Assembly: GCA_023396915.1 (NCBI GenBank)
Contig: JAEWUV010000001.1
Coordinates: 21,206-85,205, forward strand
DNA length: 64,000 nt
From: Candidatus Parcubacteria bacterium
GTDB lineage: Bacteria; Patescibacteriota; Microgenomatia; UBA12405
Direction: 5' to 3'
Part shown: piece by piece, positions 44,676 through 53,163 of the stretch
Layout of the letters: each line of letters begins with the position of its first letter
Numbering within the stretch: the stretch's first letter is position 1
The notes under the pieces: model-generated
Databases searched by the model: none
What the model was told of the DNA's origin: nothing
The model's input: only the letters and a program-made list of their open reading frames with translations
Translations under genes and position numbers: made by a program

Positions 44676-44969
44676 CTAATTTTTATTTTTCCCCGCCCAC
44701 AAATTCAACCCACCAATCACCATCGCCGGCATATAAATTACCCACGCTTCCAAACTCATCACCATAAAAGCTATTTCCAAAACCAGCCACAAAATCCCTC
44801 CCAAAACCTCTTTCTTCCACGAAATTATTGTCACTATTATCAATACAAAACTCGGTATCAAATGCATCATCAACGCCACCAACCATTGTTCTTCTCCAAC
44901 CACATCCACCACAAACAAACTAATAAACAAAATAAAAACTATCGATAATATCCTAGTTATTTTCTTCAT
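44676..44969 (-). CDS. Small membrane protein (97 aa, 3 TM). Last gene of the island operon.
   Basis: Hydrophobic helices. Overlaps the fic stop region. Confidence 0.4.
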
Positions 44970-45819
44970 AATAATAAGAATAATCTATTCCTTTCATAAA
45001 TATTTCCCGACTATTAATTTTATTAGTTAAAGCCTTTTTTAATAATTTTTTTATTTCACTATTATCTTTCGGGCTTTGTATCATCGCTTTTAGATAATCA
45101 TTTTTGCCTATTTTGCTCCAGTCAACGCATTTTTTTAGCTGTTTTTTAAAAATCAAATCCAACCAGATCCGGGTAGTTCTACCGTTACCTTCCATAAATG
45201 GATGAGCCAGATTCATCTCCACATATTTATCGGTAATTTGGTTAAAAGTATCTTGAGGCATTTGCTCAATCTGTTTTAGAGTATTGTCTAAAAATTGAGC
45301 CATGGCAAATTGAAACCCGCCTTTTGATATATTTTTTTGCCTGATTTGCCCGGCAAAATTATATAATCCACCAAACAAATAAGCATGGATCTGTTGCAAA
45401 CCTTTAATTGTACCGATTTCTATTTCATCTATTAAATTACTTTCAAACAAAGCATAAGCTTTTTTCTTGCTTTGCCCATCAATAGTATTGTCACTATAAG
45501 TAAACCAATCAAGAAACGACATAGATTTTTTACTCGGAATTGCTTTTACCACCTCAACAATGTCATCTTGTGAAAAACAATCAGTAGCGTATTTTTTCCC
45601 ATCTGATGCGACTAATTTCAGTTGCCTACATTTTGTAGTCAACTGATTTCCTTCTTTTTTTAATCGTGTTTTCAACACACTCCAATATTTTCGTGGATTC
45701 GCACTTTCCGTCAAAGCAGCCACGATATCAAGAACTGAAAACCACCACTTATTTTTCTCTTCATCCCAAACCGCCCGCACTTCTTTATCATCAAAAAACC
45801 GAATTGATATTTTATCCAT
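44953..45819 (-). CDS. Fic/DOC-family protein with an N-terminal BRO-N/DinD-like domain.
   Basis: Fic motif [12 protein letters not shown] (HPFx[DE]GNGR). N-terminus [34 protein letters not shown] resembles BRO-N/RhuM-N. Confidence 0.8.
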
Positions 45820-45845: not shown

Positions 45846-46607
45846 TTATTTAATCTTTTCAACTGCCTTCACATAATTGCAGTAATCACAATCAGCACTA
45901 GATTCAGGAATTTCTTTGCTATTCAAACACTTATAAATATCCTTAATCGTTTGCTCAATCCAATCAGTCTTGCCAGTATAAGGTAGTAATTTAATATCAA
46001 ATTCCAATTTTCCATCAAAAGCCACTCTATCAGTTTTCCCGTTACAATAGACAAAATAGCCAGTATCCGACACCTCAAAACCATTTTTTCTAAATAGCCA
46101 CTGATACACTTCCATCTGTCTTTTGTATCCATCTTGCCATTCCGCATCCAAGTTTACTTCACTTTCTTTTGATGTCGATTTGTAATCTACAATTATCAAT
46201 TCATTTTTTGAATTAATCCAAACATCATCGACTGCTCCAGTAATTAACAAATTAGTTTCTGGATCCAAATAGGTAATTCCTTTAAAATTTTCTCGCCATT
46301 CATCCATTTTTGGATGTTCAAAAGGTACTGCATCCAATCCATAAGCTTTCATCAATGGGTGAGTTGTATGTTTATTTCTATGAATATCAAATTCTTTTTT
46401 AAGCAGCTTATCAACCGCTGAATTTAATGAAAAGGGGAATCCTGGTGGTTGGGCAATTCCAAGCACTCGATCCAAATAAAAACACCTTGGACATTTTATA
46501 AACAAATCAATCTTCGACCGACTTATCTTAAACGCTTGTCGGCCTGTGGCCGAGTTTTTTCCTTCATACAATCCCAGTTGTCTGTTTGGCTTATAGTATT
46601 GCGACAT
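45846..46607 (-). CDS. PD-(D/E)xK nuclease with a 4-Cys (Fe-S) cluster, Cas4/AddB-nuclease-like.
   Basis: N-terminal CPRCFYL, core IIVDYKS (D...(D/E)xK), C-terminal CDYCNY. This is the Cas4-type Cx(n)CxxC arrangement. Confidence 0.65.
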   Translation of the reverse strand: MSQYYKPNRQLGLYEGKNSATGRQAFKISRSKIDLFIKCPRCFYLDRVLGIAQPPGFPFSLNSAVDKLLKKEFDIHRNKHTTHPLMKAYGLDAVPFEHPKMDEWRENFKGITYLDPETNLLITGAVDDVWINSKNELIIVDYKSTSKESEVNLDAEWQDGYKRQMEVYQWLFRKNGFEVSDTGYFVYCNGKTDRVAFDGKLEFDIKLLPYTGKTDWIEQTIKDIYKCLNSKEIPESSADCDYCNYVKAVEKIK

Positions 46608-46662: not shown

Positions 46663-47541
46663 CTAAGCAATCCTAAAAATTGCAGTATCCGAAGGCTGGA
46701 ACTCACTGTGTTTAATGTATTTCTTTAATGAAAAAAAATCTTCATTATTTGATGACAATATTTTTGGTGTAATTGTACCTTCTTTGATATGTACATCAAT
46801 ATTTTTATCTTTGCAAAATTTTATTACGTAATTTACCATAGAATTATAAAACTCTTTGACACCAACTTGATTAGAAATCATACTATTATAATTCCATCTA
46901 CCAAACACAATTTTATCCACAAATGAAATCGACTCCAAGATAGTCTTAATGTCTTGCTTTACTATATTTGATGTTGGATATGGTTCCATACTAACCCATG
47001 TTTTTAACCCAGATTTATGTAGCTCTTTTAGAGACTCTATTCTCTTTTTAATCGGAGCAGCTCCAGGTTCAAATTTCTTCCTATATTCTTCTGATAACGA
47101 AACTATTGTTGAACCATATTCGTTTAAAGAATTATATTTACTAGCGTTAATTAATTCTTTTGGATATATCCCTTTTGTTATTATTGTTGACCTTATACCA
47201 TAAGTATTTAATTTTTCTAGTATTTTCAACGTCAATTTAATAACTTCTAGTTGTTTATACATAAATGGATCAGATGAAAAACACAAAAACACACAGTGGA
47301 TTTTATTTTTTAGTCTTGGAAGTTCTTTATCCAATAATTCCATTGCATTTCCAACAATTTTTGGGGATATCCACTCATTATAACTTTTAACGACTCCACA
47401 TCTTTTTTTCATCATGTATGCATAACAGGGAAATTTACATCCATGAGAACAACCTTCGATATGATTCAATCCATAATCCGCATATTCGACATTACTTTTG
47501 TATAGAAGTGATTTACGATTTATTTTAGGTAAACTTTTCAC
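46663..47541 (-). CDS. Three-Cys-motif (CSHGCKFPC = Cx3Cx3C) radical-SAM-like protein.
   Basis: GCSHGCKFPCYAY near the N-terminus. Paired with the RlmJ/TcmP-like gene 21 nt upstream. Confidence 0.45.
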   Translation of the reverse strand: MKSLPKINRKSLLYKSNVEYADYGLNHIEGCSHGCKFPCYAYMMKKRCGVVKSYNEWISPKIVGNAMELLDKELPRLKNKIHCVFLCFSSDPFMYKQLEVIKLTLKILEKLNTYGIRSTIITKGIYPKELINASKYNSLNEYGSTIVSLSEEYRKKFEPGAAPIKKRIESLKELHKSGLKTWVSMEPYPTSNIVKQDIKTILESISFVDKIVFGRWNYNSMISNQVGVKEFYNSMVNYVIKFCKDKNIDVHIKEGTITPKILSSNNEDFFSLKKYIKHSEFQPSDTAIFRIA

Positions 47542-47562
47542 TTATTTAGTTTAGCAGTATTT

Positions 47563-48486
47563 TTACTTTGGAGTATAGTCTTCTTTATCAAACATATACA
47601 TTTGTCCTGTGTATGTGGATTTATCTTTATTTTTAAATATATGGTCTATTATTTTTTTTGCACTTGGACATCTTGATGCAAATAAAAGAAAATAGGAGGT
47701 TTCATTTTTATTCGGTCTTAACATTTGGTATACAGATAATTGATTTAATTTTGAATCAGCAAATATTTCTTTAATAATCATCAACATTAAATCTTTGTCT
47801 TTTTTACTAAAACTATCAGTTAATGATTCAATCTCATGAAGCGATTTTACAGAATTTAATAGTTTTTCTATTTTTTCTTTATTTCCATTGTTACTAATTA
47901 ATTTCTTTACATAAGCCAAAACTCTCGATGTTCCACAAATATAGTTTAATATCAAATCATTAGGGCTTTTCTCTCCACGGCTTACTATTTGTTTTATTGT
48001 TTCTTTCTTTATTTCTTTTGGTCCCCACGGATCAATAAAAAATAAAACTGGTCTATATTTTATTTTTTCAATAATATTTCCAATTTCTATATTAATATCA
48101 CCCAGTATAAGATCAATATTAACAAATTTTCTGTAAGGTTCACAAAAATTCTCCAATTCTTTAACTGATTTTTTATTTTTTTCAACAAAAATACAATTCA
48201 GCTTTACAGTTCCAGAGTGTTTCAAATAAAGAGATTTTGCATATTCTAAGGCAATTAATGGAGATCCATTTATCGAATCCATTATTCCATTATTGTGATA
48301 CATTCCTCTCCCAGCATAACAGTCTATATAATAAGCAGTTTTTGCCCATTGTTTTTGATGATTTAGATATTGAGCAAAAATAATAGTAGCCCATTTATTA
48401 AGATATTCTTTTAAAATTTCCAATTTTCTTTTAGTATGGGGTCTATTTGTTATATCCCAATAATTACTTTTATTCATAAAACACAA
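47563..48486 (-). CDS. RlmJ-like / TcmP-like protein (putative N6-adenine methyltransferase fold; 'three-Cys-motif partner protein').
   Basis: YIDCYAGRGMY, GSPLIALEYAK and LFFIDPWGPKE parallel RlmJ motifs (YLDTHAGAGRY, GSPLIA, LIDPPYE). Its start is 1 nt after the upstream RM-like gene stop. Confidence 0.5.
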   Translation of the reverse strand: MCFMNKSNYWDITNRPHTKRKLEILKEYLNKWATIIFAQYLNHQKQWAKTAYYIDCYAGRGMYHNNGIMDSINGSPLIALEYAKSLYLKHSGTVKLNCIFVEKNKKSVKELENFCEPYRKFVNIDLILGDINIEIGNIIEKIKYRPVLFFIDPWGPKEIKKETIKQIVSRGEKSPNDLILNYICGTSRVLAYVKKLISNNGNKEKIEKLLNSVKSLHEIESLTDSFSKKDKDLMLMIIKEIFADSKLNQLSVYQMLRPNKNETSYFLLFASRCPSAKKIIDHIFKNKDKSTYTGQMYMFDKEDYTPK

Positions 48487-48487
48487 T

Positions 48488-51400
48488 CTATTTTACATTT
48501 TCTTCTGTAATTTTAATTTCTTCCTCAATTTTTAAATATACTTTATCAATTCTAATTTGAATTTCTTTTGTTAATTTTAATACTGTCACCACCCTACAAT
48601 AATGTCGAATATCTTCATCTGATAAAGTTTTTTCCACCCTATCTTTAAGCCACTTATCTAATACTTGATATCCGCCAATATAATAATTCCAAATCTCAGG
48701 AGTAACATCATCAAAATATTGAGAATCATTTATATAAACACGATTGTTTTCTAGATCGTATTTTCTTTTGTTAACTTTTCCTTCTCCCTGACCAAAAAAT
48801 CTTGTAGAAGGGTTATCTAATTCTGATGAATTTAATAAATGTAGATTTATTAAATCTTCACCTAAAGAAGATAGTAATTGAAAAGTTTCTAAGTTTTCTG
48901 TAAAAGGAATCCTAGGAAAATCTATTTTTAAAAATTCTTTGTATTTCTCTCGATAGATATTTGAATAAAGAATCGCATAAATATAATAAAAAATTGCCTC
49001 ATTTGTTTGAATAAAATTACCTGATATTTTTGATGCGAATGATGGAACTTGTTGGATAAAATTTGGTAACTTTGACCAGTTGTAATTTGACGACCTAATT
49101 TTTGATTCCGACAACTCTTGTTGAGAACTGTAAATATAAAGTGGAAATGTATATGCCGAATCTTGAGCATTATCTAAATAATGAAAATCGGTTATGGTAT
49201 TTGTTATACCAAAATAATTTAAACTTAACTGACGGTTTCTTTTAGCAGATATTAATATCAAATTGTTCCGCATAAAAATATGTTTTGTAACTTCATTGCG
49301 TACTCTCCATATAGCAGATGGATGATTGAATATCCAACGATTATCAAATGGTCTATAACTGTAGTTTGAATAATATTTATTAATATTCTCAAGATTTTTT
49401 AATTTCAATTTTGTTTCAGGAATTCGTTCAGAATAAATCTTACTTAATTTAAAAGTATTTTTAATAAATTCATCATCACCAACACTGTTTATAAAACTAT
49501 TAATTTTTGTTTCGAGTTTATGTTTATCAAAATCAATCACAAAGTTATCATTCGCGGTTAGAATACCAGTACTATAAATATTAAAAATATCCGTTAAAGG
49601 TATAAACTTTTGGTATTTTTCATTACCTTCTTCATTTCTTGGAACTAAGAAATAATAAGGTTTAGATGGAATTAATTTTTGCCATTTTGTTGTTGTAATA
49701 TCATTTGATTCAAGCCATTTATATTTATCTTCACGTAAACCCCATTGATCACAATAGAATATTTGTTTAGTTTTAACAGGTGTCTTACATAATAAAACAA
49801 TAGATACTCCAGTTTGAATATCAAAAACATTTTCGTCTTTTTTACCTTCAGGTGTCTTTTCCTTTTTAAGGATACTACCGTGTAAATTAACAACATATAT
49901 TTCATTAAAAGTATTTAACATGGAATATCTCATACCACGGAAAGTTGGATTATCAAGCCAAGCATGATTAGTAATAAATCCTAAAATTCCCTGTTTATTT
50001 TGTTCAATCTTCCATTGAGAAAATCTGAAAAATTTTACATAATCATCTTGCAACCAATCTTTTTTTTCATTTAATTTTTCTCCCTCAATCTGGCGATATT
50101 CATTAATTTCCCCCAGTATCCAATCTCCTTTATTTGTAGAAACAGCTGAATAGGGTGGATTACCCATAATAACCATTACCTTTTTATTTTTTTTAACATC
50201 ATTAGCTTGACGAGATTCTTCTGATAAATCAGAAAATAATGGAAGATCCATGTGTGGAAGATTATTCAAATCAAGCGTATTAGTTAAAAAAAGATTAAAT
50301 CGTTCATACTGCCCTAATTTATATTTGTGTTCATCAAAAATCAAAGATGCTTTAATGTGTCCTAAAACATAAGGTGACATCATTAATTCAAAAGCAAAAA
50401 AATGAGGGATAATATGATTTTTTATCAAATTATTAATTCCTCCATCACCATATCTGTTTTTATATTCATCTATGGCTACTTTAATTGCTTCAATCGGAAA
50501 GGTTAATGTACCAGCAGCAGGATCAAGTAAAGTTACTGAATTACTAGCTAATCCATCCGGTCTTTTAAATTTTTTTTGAAGAATTTTATGAACTGAATTT
50601 ACTATATATTTAACTACTGGCTCCGGTGTGTAATATACTCCTCTTTTTGCCCTCTCTTTTGGATCATACTCAGCAAGAAAAGTTTCATAAAAATGGATAA
50701 TAGGATCATTACCCTTACCATTTAAATAATAATTATCAACAATCTTTGTAACATCCGTGTTTTTAAGTAATTCGGCAATATCGTCAATAATCCATTCCAT
50801 ATTTTTAGGTAAATCGTTAGATGAAATGAAACGAAATATGCTTCTTAAAACTCCAATTGTAGATGGAATAGTTTTAAAAGCATTTAAACGATTAAAATCT
50901 GATGATGATCGAAGACGAGCTGCGAATAAACCAAAAGTAATGGTTTGAGAAAACAAATTTGCAAAATCATCAAGATTTAAAGAGGATATTAAATATTCTT
51001 TGAACAGTTTATAAATTCCCTCAAGTGTTTGAGTTCCAGTTTGTGTTTCCTCTTTTAACTCCTCAATAATGCAGTTTTCTTTAAGAAAACTAGTTCTTTT
51101 AGCAAGTTCTATTGCTAAAGTTTTAGCTGTATTGATTTTTGGAGTAGAAAAAGAGAAAAATTCAGCTAATAACTTTTGGAGATATAACTCATTTTCTACC
51201 GGCGGAACAATCCCAAGCTGATTAAGGATAACAGGACGACCTATCATTACTTTATCTATTTGTTCTCCGTTGCGGTAAAGTCTAAATTCGAGAAAATTTG
51301 TCAAAATCAAATTAGGGAAAGTTTTAAGGTATCTTTGTAGTTGTTCTGTTTGTTCTATAGCGTCGAGGTTTTCAATATTTGGTTCTTTTGCTTCTATATA

Positions 51401-51607
51401 ACCAATAAGTTGATATTTCTGAGTTTGAATTCTGAAATCAGGATTTCCTGCTTCAGTTTTTTTAGGCAAAATAGTTACACTAATTTCTTTTTTATTTTGG
51501 ATTGCATAAGCCTCAATTAATTTTTTCAGATCTGGGTAATAACTTTCTTCACGAACATCTCCAGCGTTAGTAGTCGCAGACAAATCAGATAAATATTCTT
51601 TAAACAT
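48488..51607 (-). CDS. MmeI-like type IIL/IIG restriction-modification enzyme: N-terminal PD-ExK nuclease, gamma-class N6-adenine methyltransferase, C-terminal target-recognition region.
   Basis: NPDFRIQ...GYIEAKEP (PD...ExK), MTase motif I LLDPAAGTLTF, motif IV MGNPPYS. 1039 aa. Very AT-rich codon usage. Confidence 0.75.
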   Translation of the reverse strand: MFKEYLSDLSATTNAGDVREESYYPDLKKLIEAYAIQNKKEISVTILPKKTEAGNPDFRIQTQKYQLIGYIEAKEPNIENLDAIEQTEQLQRYLKTFPNLILTNFLEFRLYRNGEQIDKVMIGRPVILNQLGIVPPVENELYLQKLLAEFFSFSTPKINTAKTLAIELAKRTSFLKENCIIEELKEETQTGTQTLEGIYKLFKEYLISSLNLDDFANLFSQTITFGLFAARLRSSSDFNRLNAFKTIPSTIGVLRSIFRFISSNDLPKNMEWIIDDIAELLKNTDVTKIVDNYYLNGKGNDPIIHFYETFLAEYDPKERAKRGVYYTPEPVVKYIVNSVHKILQKKFKRPDGLASNSVTLLDPAAGTLTFPIEAIKVAIDEYKNRYGDGGINNLIKNHIIPHFFAFELMMSPYVLGHIKASLIFDEHKYKLGQYERFNLFLTNTLDLNNLPHMDLPLFSDLSEESRQANDVKKNKKVMVIMGNPPYSAVSTNKGDWILGEINEYRQIEGEKLNEKKDWLQDDYVKFFRFSQWKIEQNKQGILGFITNHAWLDNPTFRGMRYSMLNTFNEIYVVNLHGSILKKEKTPEGKKDENVFDIQTGVSIVLLCKTPVKTKQIFYCDQWGLREDKYKWLESNDITTTKWQKLIPSKPYYFLVPRNEEGNEKYQKFIPLTDIFNIYSTGILTANDNFVIDFDKHKLETKINSFINSVGDDEFIKNTFKLSKIYSERIPETKLKLKNLENINKYYSNYSYRPFDNRWIFNHPSAIWRVRNEVTKHIFMRNNLILISAKRNRQLSLNYFGITNTITDFHYLDNAQDSAYTFPLYIYSSQQELSESKIRSSNYNWSKLPNFIQQVPSFASKISGNFIQTNEAIFYYIYAILYSNIYREKYKEFLKIDFPRIPFTENLETFQLLSSLGEDLINLHLLNSSELDNPSTRFFGQGEGKVNKRKYDLENNRVYINDSQYFDDVTPEIWNYYIGGYQVLDKWLKDRVEKTLSDEDIRHYCRVVTVLKLTKEIQIRIDKVYLKIEEEIKITEENVK

Positions 51608-51656: not shown

Positions 51657-52178
51657 ATGGAATATTTAATTATCATTGTTTTAATGGTTGTACTTTTTAA
51701 GATTTTTTATAAACGCATTTTTATACAAGATGAATCAGAAAGTCATAATAAAAAATTTTCAAATTCATCCAAAATCACTCCAGGCAATTTTCGACTTCGT
51801 CCATCACTTTTAAATAGTAATGAACGAGTCTTTTTTGAACAACTCAAATTAGCAGTAGGGAATCAATACGATATCTATCCTCAAACTTCTTTAAGTGCTA
51901 TTTTTGAACCAATTGAACATTGGAATAACTGGGGTGATCTAAGTCGTTTGAACAAAAGAATTGATTTTGTTTTGTTTGACAAAAATACTCAAACTCCAAA
52001 GATTGCTATCGAGCTAGACGGTGACTCCCATTCTAAGTTTAAAAGTATTAAACGTGATGAATTTGTTGGCGATCTTTTTGAAAAATTTAATATTCCTTTA
52101 GTCCGCTTTAATAATGGCAATTATTCTGCCGAAGAGATTAAAAACAAACTTTCTATTTTTCAATTACTTTCTTTTTAA
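51657..52178 (+). CDS. DUF559/Vsr-like PD-(D/E)xK endonuclease-domain protein with an N-terminal TM helix.
   Basis: RIDFVLFDKNTQTPKIAIELDGDSHS...KRDEF...NIPLVRF is the DUF559/DUF2726 signature. Convergent with, and overlapping, the RhuM gene's 3' end. Confidence 0.55.
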   Translation: MEYLIIIVLMVVLFKIFYKRIFIQDESESHNKKFSNSSKITPGNFRLRPSLLNSNERVFFEQLKLAVGNQYDIYPQTSLSAIFEPIEHWNNWGDLSRLNKRIDFVLFDKNTQTPKIAIELDGDSHSKFKSIKRDEFVGDLFEKFNIPLVRFNNGNYSAEEIKNKLSIFQLLSF

Positions 52179-53163
52179 CTTTTTTCTCTACTGCTTTGAT
52201 ACTTTCCAAATAATCTTCTTCCACCGGTGACAGAGTTTTTATTTGATATTTTTTATATTCTGCCAAGGCTTTTACTTCAGCTTCAATTTTGCTGATTTTA
52301 CCGGCATTTTGTAATACAGTTCTGTCCATTGAAACCACCAACTTATCCAATTGATTTATATAATCTTCCATAGTTGTCTGTATTCCGTCAATTGCCCTCA
52401 ATTCGGCGATGTCAAAATAAGCCGATACTATATTATTTAATTTTTTAAGTTCCTGTTCGGTCAAATAATTTTTAGCCACAGTTATATCGGATTTTCTGAC
52501 TCCGTCTTTTGAAAAAGTCATCAATCCCATAAATGGTTTATCTGCATCAGCCCGTTCAGAAATTAATTCAGATGCTGTTTTTCCGTTGGCAGCATAATGA
52601 AGTTTATTTTGTACTATGGCAAAAAACTTTTTCGATTCCTGACTTTGTGGATTGTAATCAATACTGGTGGCATACAAATCTAATACTTGTCTGTACAAAA
52701 CCTTTTCACTACTACGAATATCCCGAATTCTATCCAAAAGCTCTTTCCAATAATTTCCACCACCATTATTTTTTAGTCGCTCATCATCCAAAGTAAAACC
52801 TTTAACAATATACTCGCGAAGTCGTGCCGTTGCCCATTGGCGAAAACGAGTCCCTTCTATTGAACTAACCCTATACCCAACAGAAATGATAACGTCCAAA
52901 TTGTAATGTTTTACGACATATTCTTTACCATCAGATCCAGTCCGTCGGAATTCCCGACATACTGAATTTTCTTCCAATTCTCCTTCATTAAAAATATTTA
53001 AAATGTGTTCAGTAATAGTAGATCGACCTTTATTAAACAGTTCAGCAAGCTGATCCTGATTAAGCCATACTGTTTCACTCTCTATTCGTACCTCAATTTT
53101 CGGCTGACCGCCGTCTCCTTGATAAATAATTATTTGGTTATCCGGTTGTTTATTTTTATCCAT
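52153..53163 (-). CDS. RhuM-family (DinD-like) protein.
   Basis: KIEVRIESETVWLNQDQLAELFNKGRSTITEHILNIFNEGEL...YNLDVIISVGYRV...FRQWATARLREYIVKGF matches RhuM-family hallmarks. Confidence 0.8.
   Translation of the reverse strand: MDKNKQPDNQIIIYQGDGGQPKIEVRIESETVWLNQDQLAELFNKGRSTITEHILNIFNEGELEENSVCREFRRTGSDGKEYVVKHYNLDVIISVGYRVSSIEGTRFRQWATARLREYIVKGFTLDDERLKNNGGGNYWKELLDRIRDIRSSEKVLYRQVLDLYATSIDYNPQSQESKKFFAIVQNKLHYAANGKTASELISERADADKPFMGLMTFSKDGVRKSDITVAKNYLTEQELKKLNNIVSAYFDIAELRAIDGIQTTMEDYINQLDKLVVSMDRTVLQNAGKISKIEAEVKALAEYKKYQIKTLSPVEEDYLESIKAVEKKVKKKVIEK

Follow-up and report, generated by a model that had tools for sequence, protein, structure and literature searches.

Pairs formed by an RlmJ-like protein and an adjacent three-cysteine protein of the radical S-adenosylmethionine (SAM) superfamily already have an entry in NCBIfam, and PADLOC lists related models as candidates. 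The closest described pair consists of TcmP (three-Cys-motif partner protein, TIGR04474) and Gp37/Gp68 (DUF5131, PF07505), and is, like the pair described here, mobile, occurring in prophages and plasmids. DUF5131 is a recognized radical-SAM subgroup next to spore photoproduct lyase (SPL) (PMC9477430). The Gp37/Gp68 protein beside TcmP on a Streptomyces plasmid (the single canonical example that we read) has a Cx6Cx2C motif, and the radical-SAM neighbor of TcmP on a Halopiger plasmid has the canonical Cx3Cx2C motif. Here, we describe a TcmP–radical-SAM pair in a 64,000-nucleotide stretch of a Candidatus Parcubacteria genome (contig JAEWUV010000001.1, positions 21,206 to 85,205; hereafter the window), which is part of a 907-kb metagenomic scaffold. 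We tentatively favor the reading that the pair is a SAM-dependent DNA-modifying enzyme of two subunits, which is autonomous and spreads horizontally. The pair and the gene directly upstream of it comprise the following features:

47563..48486, minus strand: TcmP, a SAM-binding protein with an RlmJ-like Rossmann fold; ATG 48477 is the likely start and gives 304 residues
48298..48327, minus strand: TcmP motif I IDCYAGRGMY, SAM-binding D-x-x-A-G-x-G-x-Y, read from the translation and paired by hhalign with RlmJ LDTHAGAGRY
48250..48267, minus strand: TcmP GSPLIA motif, the same as GSPLIA of E. coli RlmJ, read from the translation; G74 and S75 nearly invariant
48019..48036, minus strand: TcmP motif IV-like IDPWGP, counterpart of RlmJ IDPPYE, read from the translation
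46663..47541, minus strand: radical-SAM superfamily protein, SPL-like branch, Cx3Cx3C clade
47419..47454, minus strand: predicted cluster-binding motif GCSHGCKFPCYA (C31, C35, and C39), read from the translation; Cx3Cx3C in 273 of 275 relatives
48488..51607, minus strand: Type IIG restriction-modification (RM) enzyme with a nuclease, an N6-adenine methyltransferase (NPPY), and a Type ISP-like specificity domain; directly upstream and co-oriented

Both open reading frames (ORFs) of the pair lie on the minus strand where the first-pass annotation of the window had placed them, and translation reproduced each of the motifs that it had quoted (GCSHGCKFPCYA, IDCYAGRGMY, GSPLIA, and IDPWGP). The 307-residue protein, described there as RlmJ/TcmP-like, matched TIGR04474 with 138.1 bits (cut-off 53) over profile positions 1–262 of 263. 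A full HMMER scan yielded 12,196 TcmP-like clusters at 50% identity. The likeness to RlmJ that had been put forward was also borne out: RlmJ, the E. coli 23S rRNA m6A2030 (N6-methyladenosine) methyltransferase (PDB 6qe5 and 2oo3), was the top match of TcmP in the fold comparison, and TcmP has the RlmJ fold. Four motifs, read by eye, are common to the 2 proteins: (i) an N-terminal H...K motif, in which the invariant K21 of TcmP sits; (ii) motif I; (iii) GSPLIA; and (iv) IDPPY in RlmJ and IDPWG in TcmP. We take the catalytic residues of E. coli RlmJ to be K18 and D164 of DPPY. K21 and D152-P153 of TcmP, the latter 2 residues being invariant among 62 TcmPs, are in the matching motifs, with the aromatic residue shifted (DPWG). 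The TcmP profile retrieved nothing significant from the PDB (RlmJ at E of approximately 1.6), hhalign of this profile with E. coli RlmJ aligned motif I alone (probability 10%), and a Pfam scan of the window TcmP gave no RlmJ-type match. Since the profile methods detected motif I alone, TcmP is RlmJ-like in fold and lies outside the RlmJ sequence family. The longer TcmPs bear a C-terminal winged-helix domain.

The 292-residue protein passed the radical-SAM family model PF04055 (49.9 bits, cut-off 29.5), and its top structural match was SPL (SplB, PDB 4fhc), whose fold it shares. C31, C35, and C39 were invariant in a 19-sequence alignment of bacterial and archaeal members, in agreement with the cysteine triad that the first-pass annotation had singled out. 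The motif is indeed Cx3Cx3C, not the canonical Cx3Cx2C: alignment with the SPL segment GCMGHCHY-CY placed a one-residue SPL gap opposite Pro38, and the window motif is thus the canonical CxxxCxxC plus one inserted proline, an arrangement that is constant in the clade. A fourth cysteine (C87, in LCF[ST]TDPF) is present in 266 of the 275 relatives, and Y40 is conserved too. Judged from their SPL-like spacing, C87 and Y40 may be the counterparts of the H-donor cysteine and the relay tyrosine of SPL.

At the sequence level, the profile of the radical-SAM protein gave no match to PDB sequences at E ≤ 1 (SPL appeared weakly at E = 1.1), and the Pfam SPL model (PF20903) gave no match to the window protein at E ≤ 0.01; the homologue P0044 reached 26.8 bits against this model (cut-off 27). 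The suggestion that the protein is the canonical TcmP partner did not hold, as it scored 22.9 against DUF5131/PF07505 (cut-off 28.9) over residues 16–109 only. The scores were 51.6 for PA0069 (NF033668, cut-off 360), 39.5 for Rv2578c (NF038135, cut-off 430), and 41.6 for radical SAM mobile pair protein B (TIGR04470, cut-off 410). The family comprises 5970 detectable 90%-identity clusters, with approximately 60% identity across candidate phyla radiation (CPR) bacteria, DPANN archaea, Omnitrophota, Firmicutes, and others, and the Cx3Cx3C clade has thousands of members in bacteria, archaea, and prophages. A fold search in the viral set returned generic radical-SAM matches only. Remote radical-SAM genes of Bacteroides phages were considered and set aside; they belong to a different family and lie in replication modules with no annotated TcmP.

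The 2 genes behave as a unit. For 64 of the 82 radical-SAM genes from the window and 80 genome loci, TcmP is the co-oriented gene directly upstream (several of the remaining cases had too little upstream sequence to judge the presence of TcmP); among viral contigs, 66 of 72 loci show this arrangement. Fusions of approximately 586 residues, with TcmP and the radical-SAM protein in that order and Cx3Cx3C kept, occur in several lineages. The rest of the surroundings varies, with no conserved third gene. The 2 proteins differ strongly in conservation: among 61 loci with both, TcmP had a median pairwise identity of 21%, against 61% in the radical-SAM protein, and the identities of the 2 proteins were weakly correlated (rho 0.20). 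These values would fit a variable targeting subunit combined with a constrained catalytic subunit.

In L139:7950-9985 (loci are given by our own numbers) and in 11 viral loci resembling it (e.g., L101, L115, L123, and L145), 2 tandem TcmP paralogues precede the radical-SAM gene, one of approximately 379 residues with a degenerate SAM motif and one of approximately 289 residues with an intact one; a Type III Mod gene (and Res) comes next in 12 of 13 such loci. In L051:6285-8368, a canonical Cx3Cx2C radical-SAM gene adjoins an AbiEii-like nucleotidyltransferase gene, 1.6 kb upstream of a Cx3Cx3C member without TcmP.

RM genes are the commonest neighbors of the pair. The enzyme upstream in the window was identified as Type IIG by PADLOC (REase_MTase_IIG, 834 bits) and Pfam (Type_ISP_C, 244 bits, and N6_Mtase), and its translation shows GNPPY and an N-terminal D...EAK. 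As in the window, a Type IIG enzyme is directly upstream and co-oriented in L017, L018, L032, and L043. The RM family of the window adjoins the pair in three phyla; full-length orthologues are present beside the pair in L046 (a Nitrospirota contig) and beside a fused gene in L061 (Actinomycetota). The top upstream Pfam families in the genome loci included ResIII, N6_Mtase, N6_N4_Mtase, Eco57I, MmeI_Mtase, TaqI_C, and HSDR_N, the top downstream family was N6_N4_Mtase, and Type II and Type IV enzymes are also found among the RM neighbors. In L056, a true N6/N4 DNA methylase takes the place of TcmP, in the order AlwI restriction enzyme, methyltransferase, radical-SAM gene. In L023, the order is Mod, Res-S24 fusion, TcmP, and radical-SAM gene; the fusion, directly upstream of TcmP, is a Type III Res helicase with a C-terminal S24 (LexA-like) peptidase domain (L023:3141-6305). 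L061:4466-20050 contains a split pair and, 3 kb away, a fused TcmP–radical-SAM gene of 588 residues, surrounded by a NACHT NTPase, a SMODS cyclase, DUF5615, and a Type IIG orthologue 44% identical to that of the window.

A layout of two divergent arms recurs in the prophage-like contigs. One arm consists of an ImmA-like M78 gene and replication genes, and the other consists of a Cro/C1 helix-turn-helix (HTH) gene, TcmP (at times as two paralogues), the radical-SAM gene, and variable cargo. Type III Mod and Res genes are directly downstream of the pair in 17 prophage loci; other cargo in this slot includes GmrSD, MvaI/BcnI or HindIII with methylases, Dam, other methyltransferases, and AIPR. The RM association reported for the window thus recurs in unrelated organisms and in prophages, but it is absent in the closest relatives of the window TcmP.

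The first-pass annotation had also described the pair as translationally coupled to the RM enzyme across a 1-nt gap. The enzyme is indeed directly upstream, but the 1-nt gap exists only if the longest ORF, starting at the doubtful TTG 48486, is used. ATG 48477 is the TcmP start in homologues and in the database gene call (P0121, 304 residues), and it leaves 10 nt between the RM stop codon and TcmP; the proposed coupling therefore rests on the doubtful start codon. No obvious Shine-Dalgarno sequence precedes ATG 48477. The gap between TcmP and the radical-SAM gene is 21 nt. Because no terminator-like hairpin was found between the RM, TcmP, and radical-SAM genes, co-transcription of the 3 genes is plausible.

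We propose the following mechanism. TcmP would bind SAM through D55-x-x-A-G-x-G. A base, in all likelihood adenine, would be flipped out and presented in a pocket that K21 and the D152-P-W-G motif form, and TcmP would either N-methylate this base or merely target it. As the fast-evolving subunit, TcmP would set the specificity. The radical-SAM partner, in complex with TcmP, would bind a [4Fe-4S] cluster through C31, C35, and C39, cleave a second SAM to the 5'-deoxyadenosyl radical, and abstract an H atom at the same DNA site, with C87 and Y40 as the probable radical-relay residues, as in SPL. The net outcome would be a radical-SAM-dependent DNA base modification, carried by defense islands and prophages alongside RM enzymes such as the Type IIG enzyme of the window and not dependent on them. 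We infer one two-subunit DNA-acting enzyme from the adjacency, the fusions, the SPL-like catalytic subunit, the RlmJ-like subunit that would flip the base and whose SAM and DPxG motifs are intact, the winged-helix extensions, and the replacement of TcmP by a DNA methylase in L056. The listing of TcmP-like proteins by PADLOC as candidate defense components PDC-M41A and PDC-M30A was counted toward the DNA and RM context. We prefer a role as writer because the partner is methyltransferase-like, TcmP evolves fast, and the pair shares operons with RM enzymes of many kinds.

A more specific form of this proposal is possible, although rather doubtful: the pair may write an undescribed radical-SAM-dependent DNA base modification, e.g., a C-alkylated or bridged adenine or pyrimidine, at sites chosen by TcmP. 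Prophages and defense islands would deploy this portable mark, to label self or to protect, next to single-strand-methylating RM enzymes (Type IIG and Type III). If true, the pair would include the first enzyme of the SPL type to place a mark on DNA instead of repairing a lesion.

LexA-like S24 genes are directly upstream of TcmP in at least 5 loci of different phyla (L003, L031, L039, L040, and L165), and switches of the ImmA/Cro type flank the pair in prophages. A regulator of the LexA-like S24 or the Cro/ImmA type is often the first gene of the operon. These regulators favor a second explanation, according to which the pair repairs DNA damage by an SOS-type lesion reversal: TcmP would flip and recognize a damaged base, and the SPL-like enzyme would undo the damage through redox-neutral radical chemistry, in the way that SPL acts on the spore photoproduct. 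SplB-like COG1533 genes have been reported as core members of the LexA regulon, and this published SOS regulation of related genes points in the same direction (PMC4951493, PMC3765255). Repair would also be consistent with SPL as the top structural match, with PA0069 and Rv2578c (SplB-like, COG1533) as the nearest sequence families, albeit far below their cut-offs, and with the high conservation of the radical-SAM protein, as expected for an invariant substrate. Neighbors of the pair include RarA, UvrB, PolX, and RuvC, near which, and near dnaA/dnaN, the closest relatives of the window TcmP are found, and Y-family polymerases. Repair ranks next after the modification reading and is a serious rival of the hypothesis of DNA hypermodification or modification sensing that the first-pass annotation had put forward. 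We nevertheless consider repair unlikely. No repair pathway is known to depend on a methyltransferase-like partner whose SAM and DPxG motifs are intact. Divergence to 21% identity would be surprising in a subunit that recognizes lesions, and the commonest neighbors are RM and DNA-methylase genes, often in the same operon. The S24 and HTH/M78 regulators are not specific to repair, as they control mobile elements and defense operons too.

In L166:7001-8796 (a contig of JGI 3300024265), the pair, with a TcmP 48% identical to that of the window, is located inside an otherwise canonical str operon, in the order rpoC-rpsL-rpsG-[TcmP-radical-SAM]-fusA-tuf-rpsJ. The position between rpsG and fusA could indicate that the pair modifies an rRNA or tRNA nucleotide, as RlmJ and the radical-SAM enzymes RlmN and Cfr do, e.g., against a ribosome-targeting toxin. 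Mobile rRNA-modifying resistance genes are a known precedent, and the closest solved structure to TcmP is an rRNA m6A methyltransferase. This explanation appears highly improbable, as the str-operon context was seen once only, the radical-SAM partner resembles the DNA enzyme SPL and not RlmN, Cfr, or MiaB, and the neighborhoods are dominated by RM genes, DNA methylases, and prophage regulators. The DNA methylase that stands in for TcmP in L056 and the winged-helix domains on the long TcmPs likewise argue for DNA as the substrate.

In the window, the pair is embedded in an island with a GC content of 0.26–0.30 over approximately 46–52 kb, compared with approximately 0.34 elsewhere. Five consecutive minus-strand ORFs, 48488-51607 (1039 residues), 47563-48486 (307 residues), 46663-47541 (292 residues), 45846-46607 (253 residues), and 44953-45819 (288 residues), run through it, and the genes other than the pair and the RM enzyme are as follows:

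45846..46607, minus strand: PD-(D/E)XK / Cas4-like nuclease with four cysteines (PF12705, 53.7 bits), 55 nt downstream of the radical-SAM gene; island cargo
44953..45819, minus strand: BRO-N + Fic adenylyltransferase (NF046029, 272 bits; PADLOC PDC-S04, 503 bits); island cargo
51657-52178, plus strand: DUF2726 gene, from Pfam and PADLOC scans; other edge of the low-GC island
52153-53163, minus strand: RhuM gene (PADLOC PDC-S05); other edge of the low-GC island

DUF2726 and RhuM are encoded by convergent genes with a 26-bp overlap. No tRNA gene, sought as a mobile-element border, was found in the 64-kb window, no convincing flanking repeats were found around the low-GC island, and a promoter-like scan performed no better than shuffled sequence. 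The whole window has a negative GC skew, with values of -0.45 to -0.53 attained within the first 8 kb, the site of long minus-strand genes. The nuclease has a 57%-identical orthologue in a gammaproteobacterial metagenome-assembled genome (L036:4308-5063), where a BRO-N fragment precedes it, the TcmP–radical-SAM pair is 3 kb upstream, and an ABC-type ATPase gene and another radical-SAM gene lie alongside. RhuM/BRO-N genes recur near the pair in L028, L044, L050, and L123, and in L036, L071, and L079. The nuclease and the Fic gene were rejected as conserved third components, the nuclease being near just one other pair (L036).

Such surroundings raise the explanation that the pair is a stand-alone anti-phage effector of the PDC-M41 type. 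TcmP would sense or target invading DNA, e.g., at unmethylated or hypermodified sites, and the partner would damage the DNA or strip the modification, with or without neighboring restriction enzymes. We regard this as distinctly unlikely. The islands of L061 (NACHT, SMODS, and Type IIG) and of the window (RhuM, Fic, and DUF2726), the prophage cargo slot that is common to RM, GmrSD, and AIPR genes, and the fast evolution of TcmP, which is typical of conflict systems, would all be accounted for. PADLOC also matched PDC-M41A and PDC-M30A to TcmP and, weakly, PDC-M41B to the radical-SAM protein, but the last match covers only the N-terminal 100 residues (25 bits), and candidate status in PADLOC is itself guilt by association. 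Moreover, the pair is usually found alone, a situation with no obvious mechanism to discriminate self from non-self, and it occurs among housekeeping genes in tiny CPR genomes.

The reading that the pair is a two-subunit DNA-modifying enzyme has to be weighed against several points: (i) the closest relatives of the window TcmP have no RM neighbor, and the RM adjacency may therefore reflect co-location in islands; (ii) motif IV of TcmP is DP[WFY]G instead of DPPY, so methyl transfer by TcmP is not assured, and one TcmP copy in the two-TcmP cassettes has a degenerate SAM motif; (iii) Cx3Cx3C, with its unusual spacing, is a putative site of cluster binding and SAM cleavage; (iv) the SPL-like fold and the apparent SPL-type cysteine/tyrosine relay point to a lyase or repair-type reaction over a writing reaction; (v) RlmJ itself is an RNA enzyme; and (vi) no biochemical or genetic study of the pair was found in our literature searches. 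The first point also implies that the pair is autonomous and need not be an accessory of RM, and on the same ground we rejected an obligate partnership with the RM enzyme.

The pairing, fusions, folds, and RM linkage make the pair a concrete and directly testable target. Work on it might uncover novel DNA chemistry, or a novel anaerobic route of repair or defense, and would clarify the role of the related SOS-regulated SplB-like enzymes.

Comparison with known systems revealed the following likenesses and differences: (i) the window radical-SAM protein has 16% sequence identity to SPL and is shorter (292 versus approximately 340 residues), and it has an extra proline in the cluster motif and an obligate methyltransferase-like partner, which SPL does not have; (ii) RlmJ is a housekeeping rRNA enzyme with DPPY, whereas TcmP is mobile, paired with a radical-SAM protein, found in RM and prophage contexts, and has DPWG; (iii) the PA0069/Rv2578c SplB-like proteins, the nearest NCBIfam families, are likewise linked to LexA-type regulation, but they are stand-alone or linked to DUF4130/UDG, not TcmP, and have the canonical Cx3Cx2C; (iv) RlmN and Cfr, in which SN2 transfer of a methyl group from SAM goes together with radical chemistry on an adenine and which use extra conserved cysteines, provide a functional analogy only; and (v) the two-gene candidate concept is shared with PDC-M41/PDC-M30 of PADLOC, in which the window TcmP matched PDC-M41A over its full length (55.1 bits) and PDC-M30A (70.6 bits), and the radical-SAM protein matched PDC-M41B over residues 15–113 only (25.1 bits), the PDC systems being candidates. 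Ophion, a radical-SAM defense system, was rejected as unrelated, with different partners. With respect to the TcmP/Gp37-Gp68 pair, the three-Cys protein of the window differs from DUF5131 and belongs to a separate, very conserved SPL-like Cx3Cx3C clade. Thus, what is new here is a widespread clade of SPL-like partners with an invariant Cx3Cx3C motif, its fused forms, the strongly asymmetric conservation of the 2 subunits, and the recurrent linkage to RM genes and SOS-type switches.

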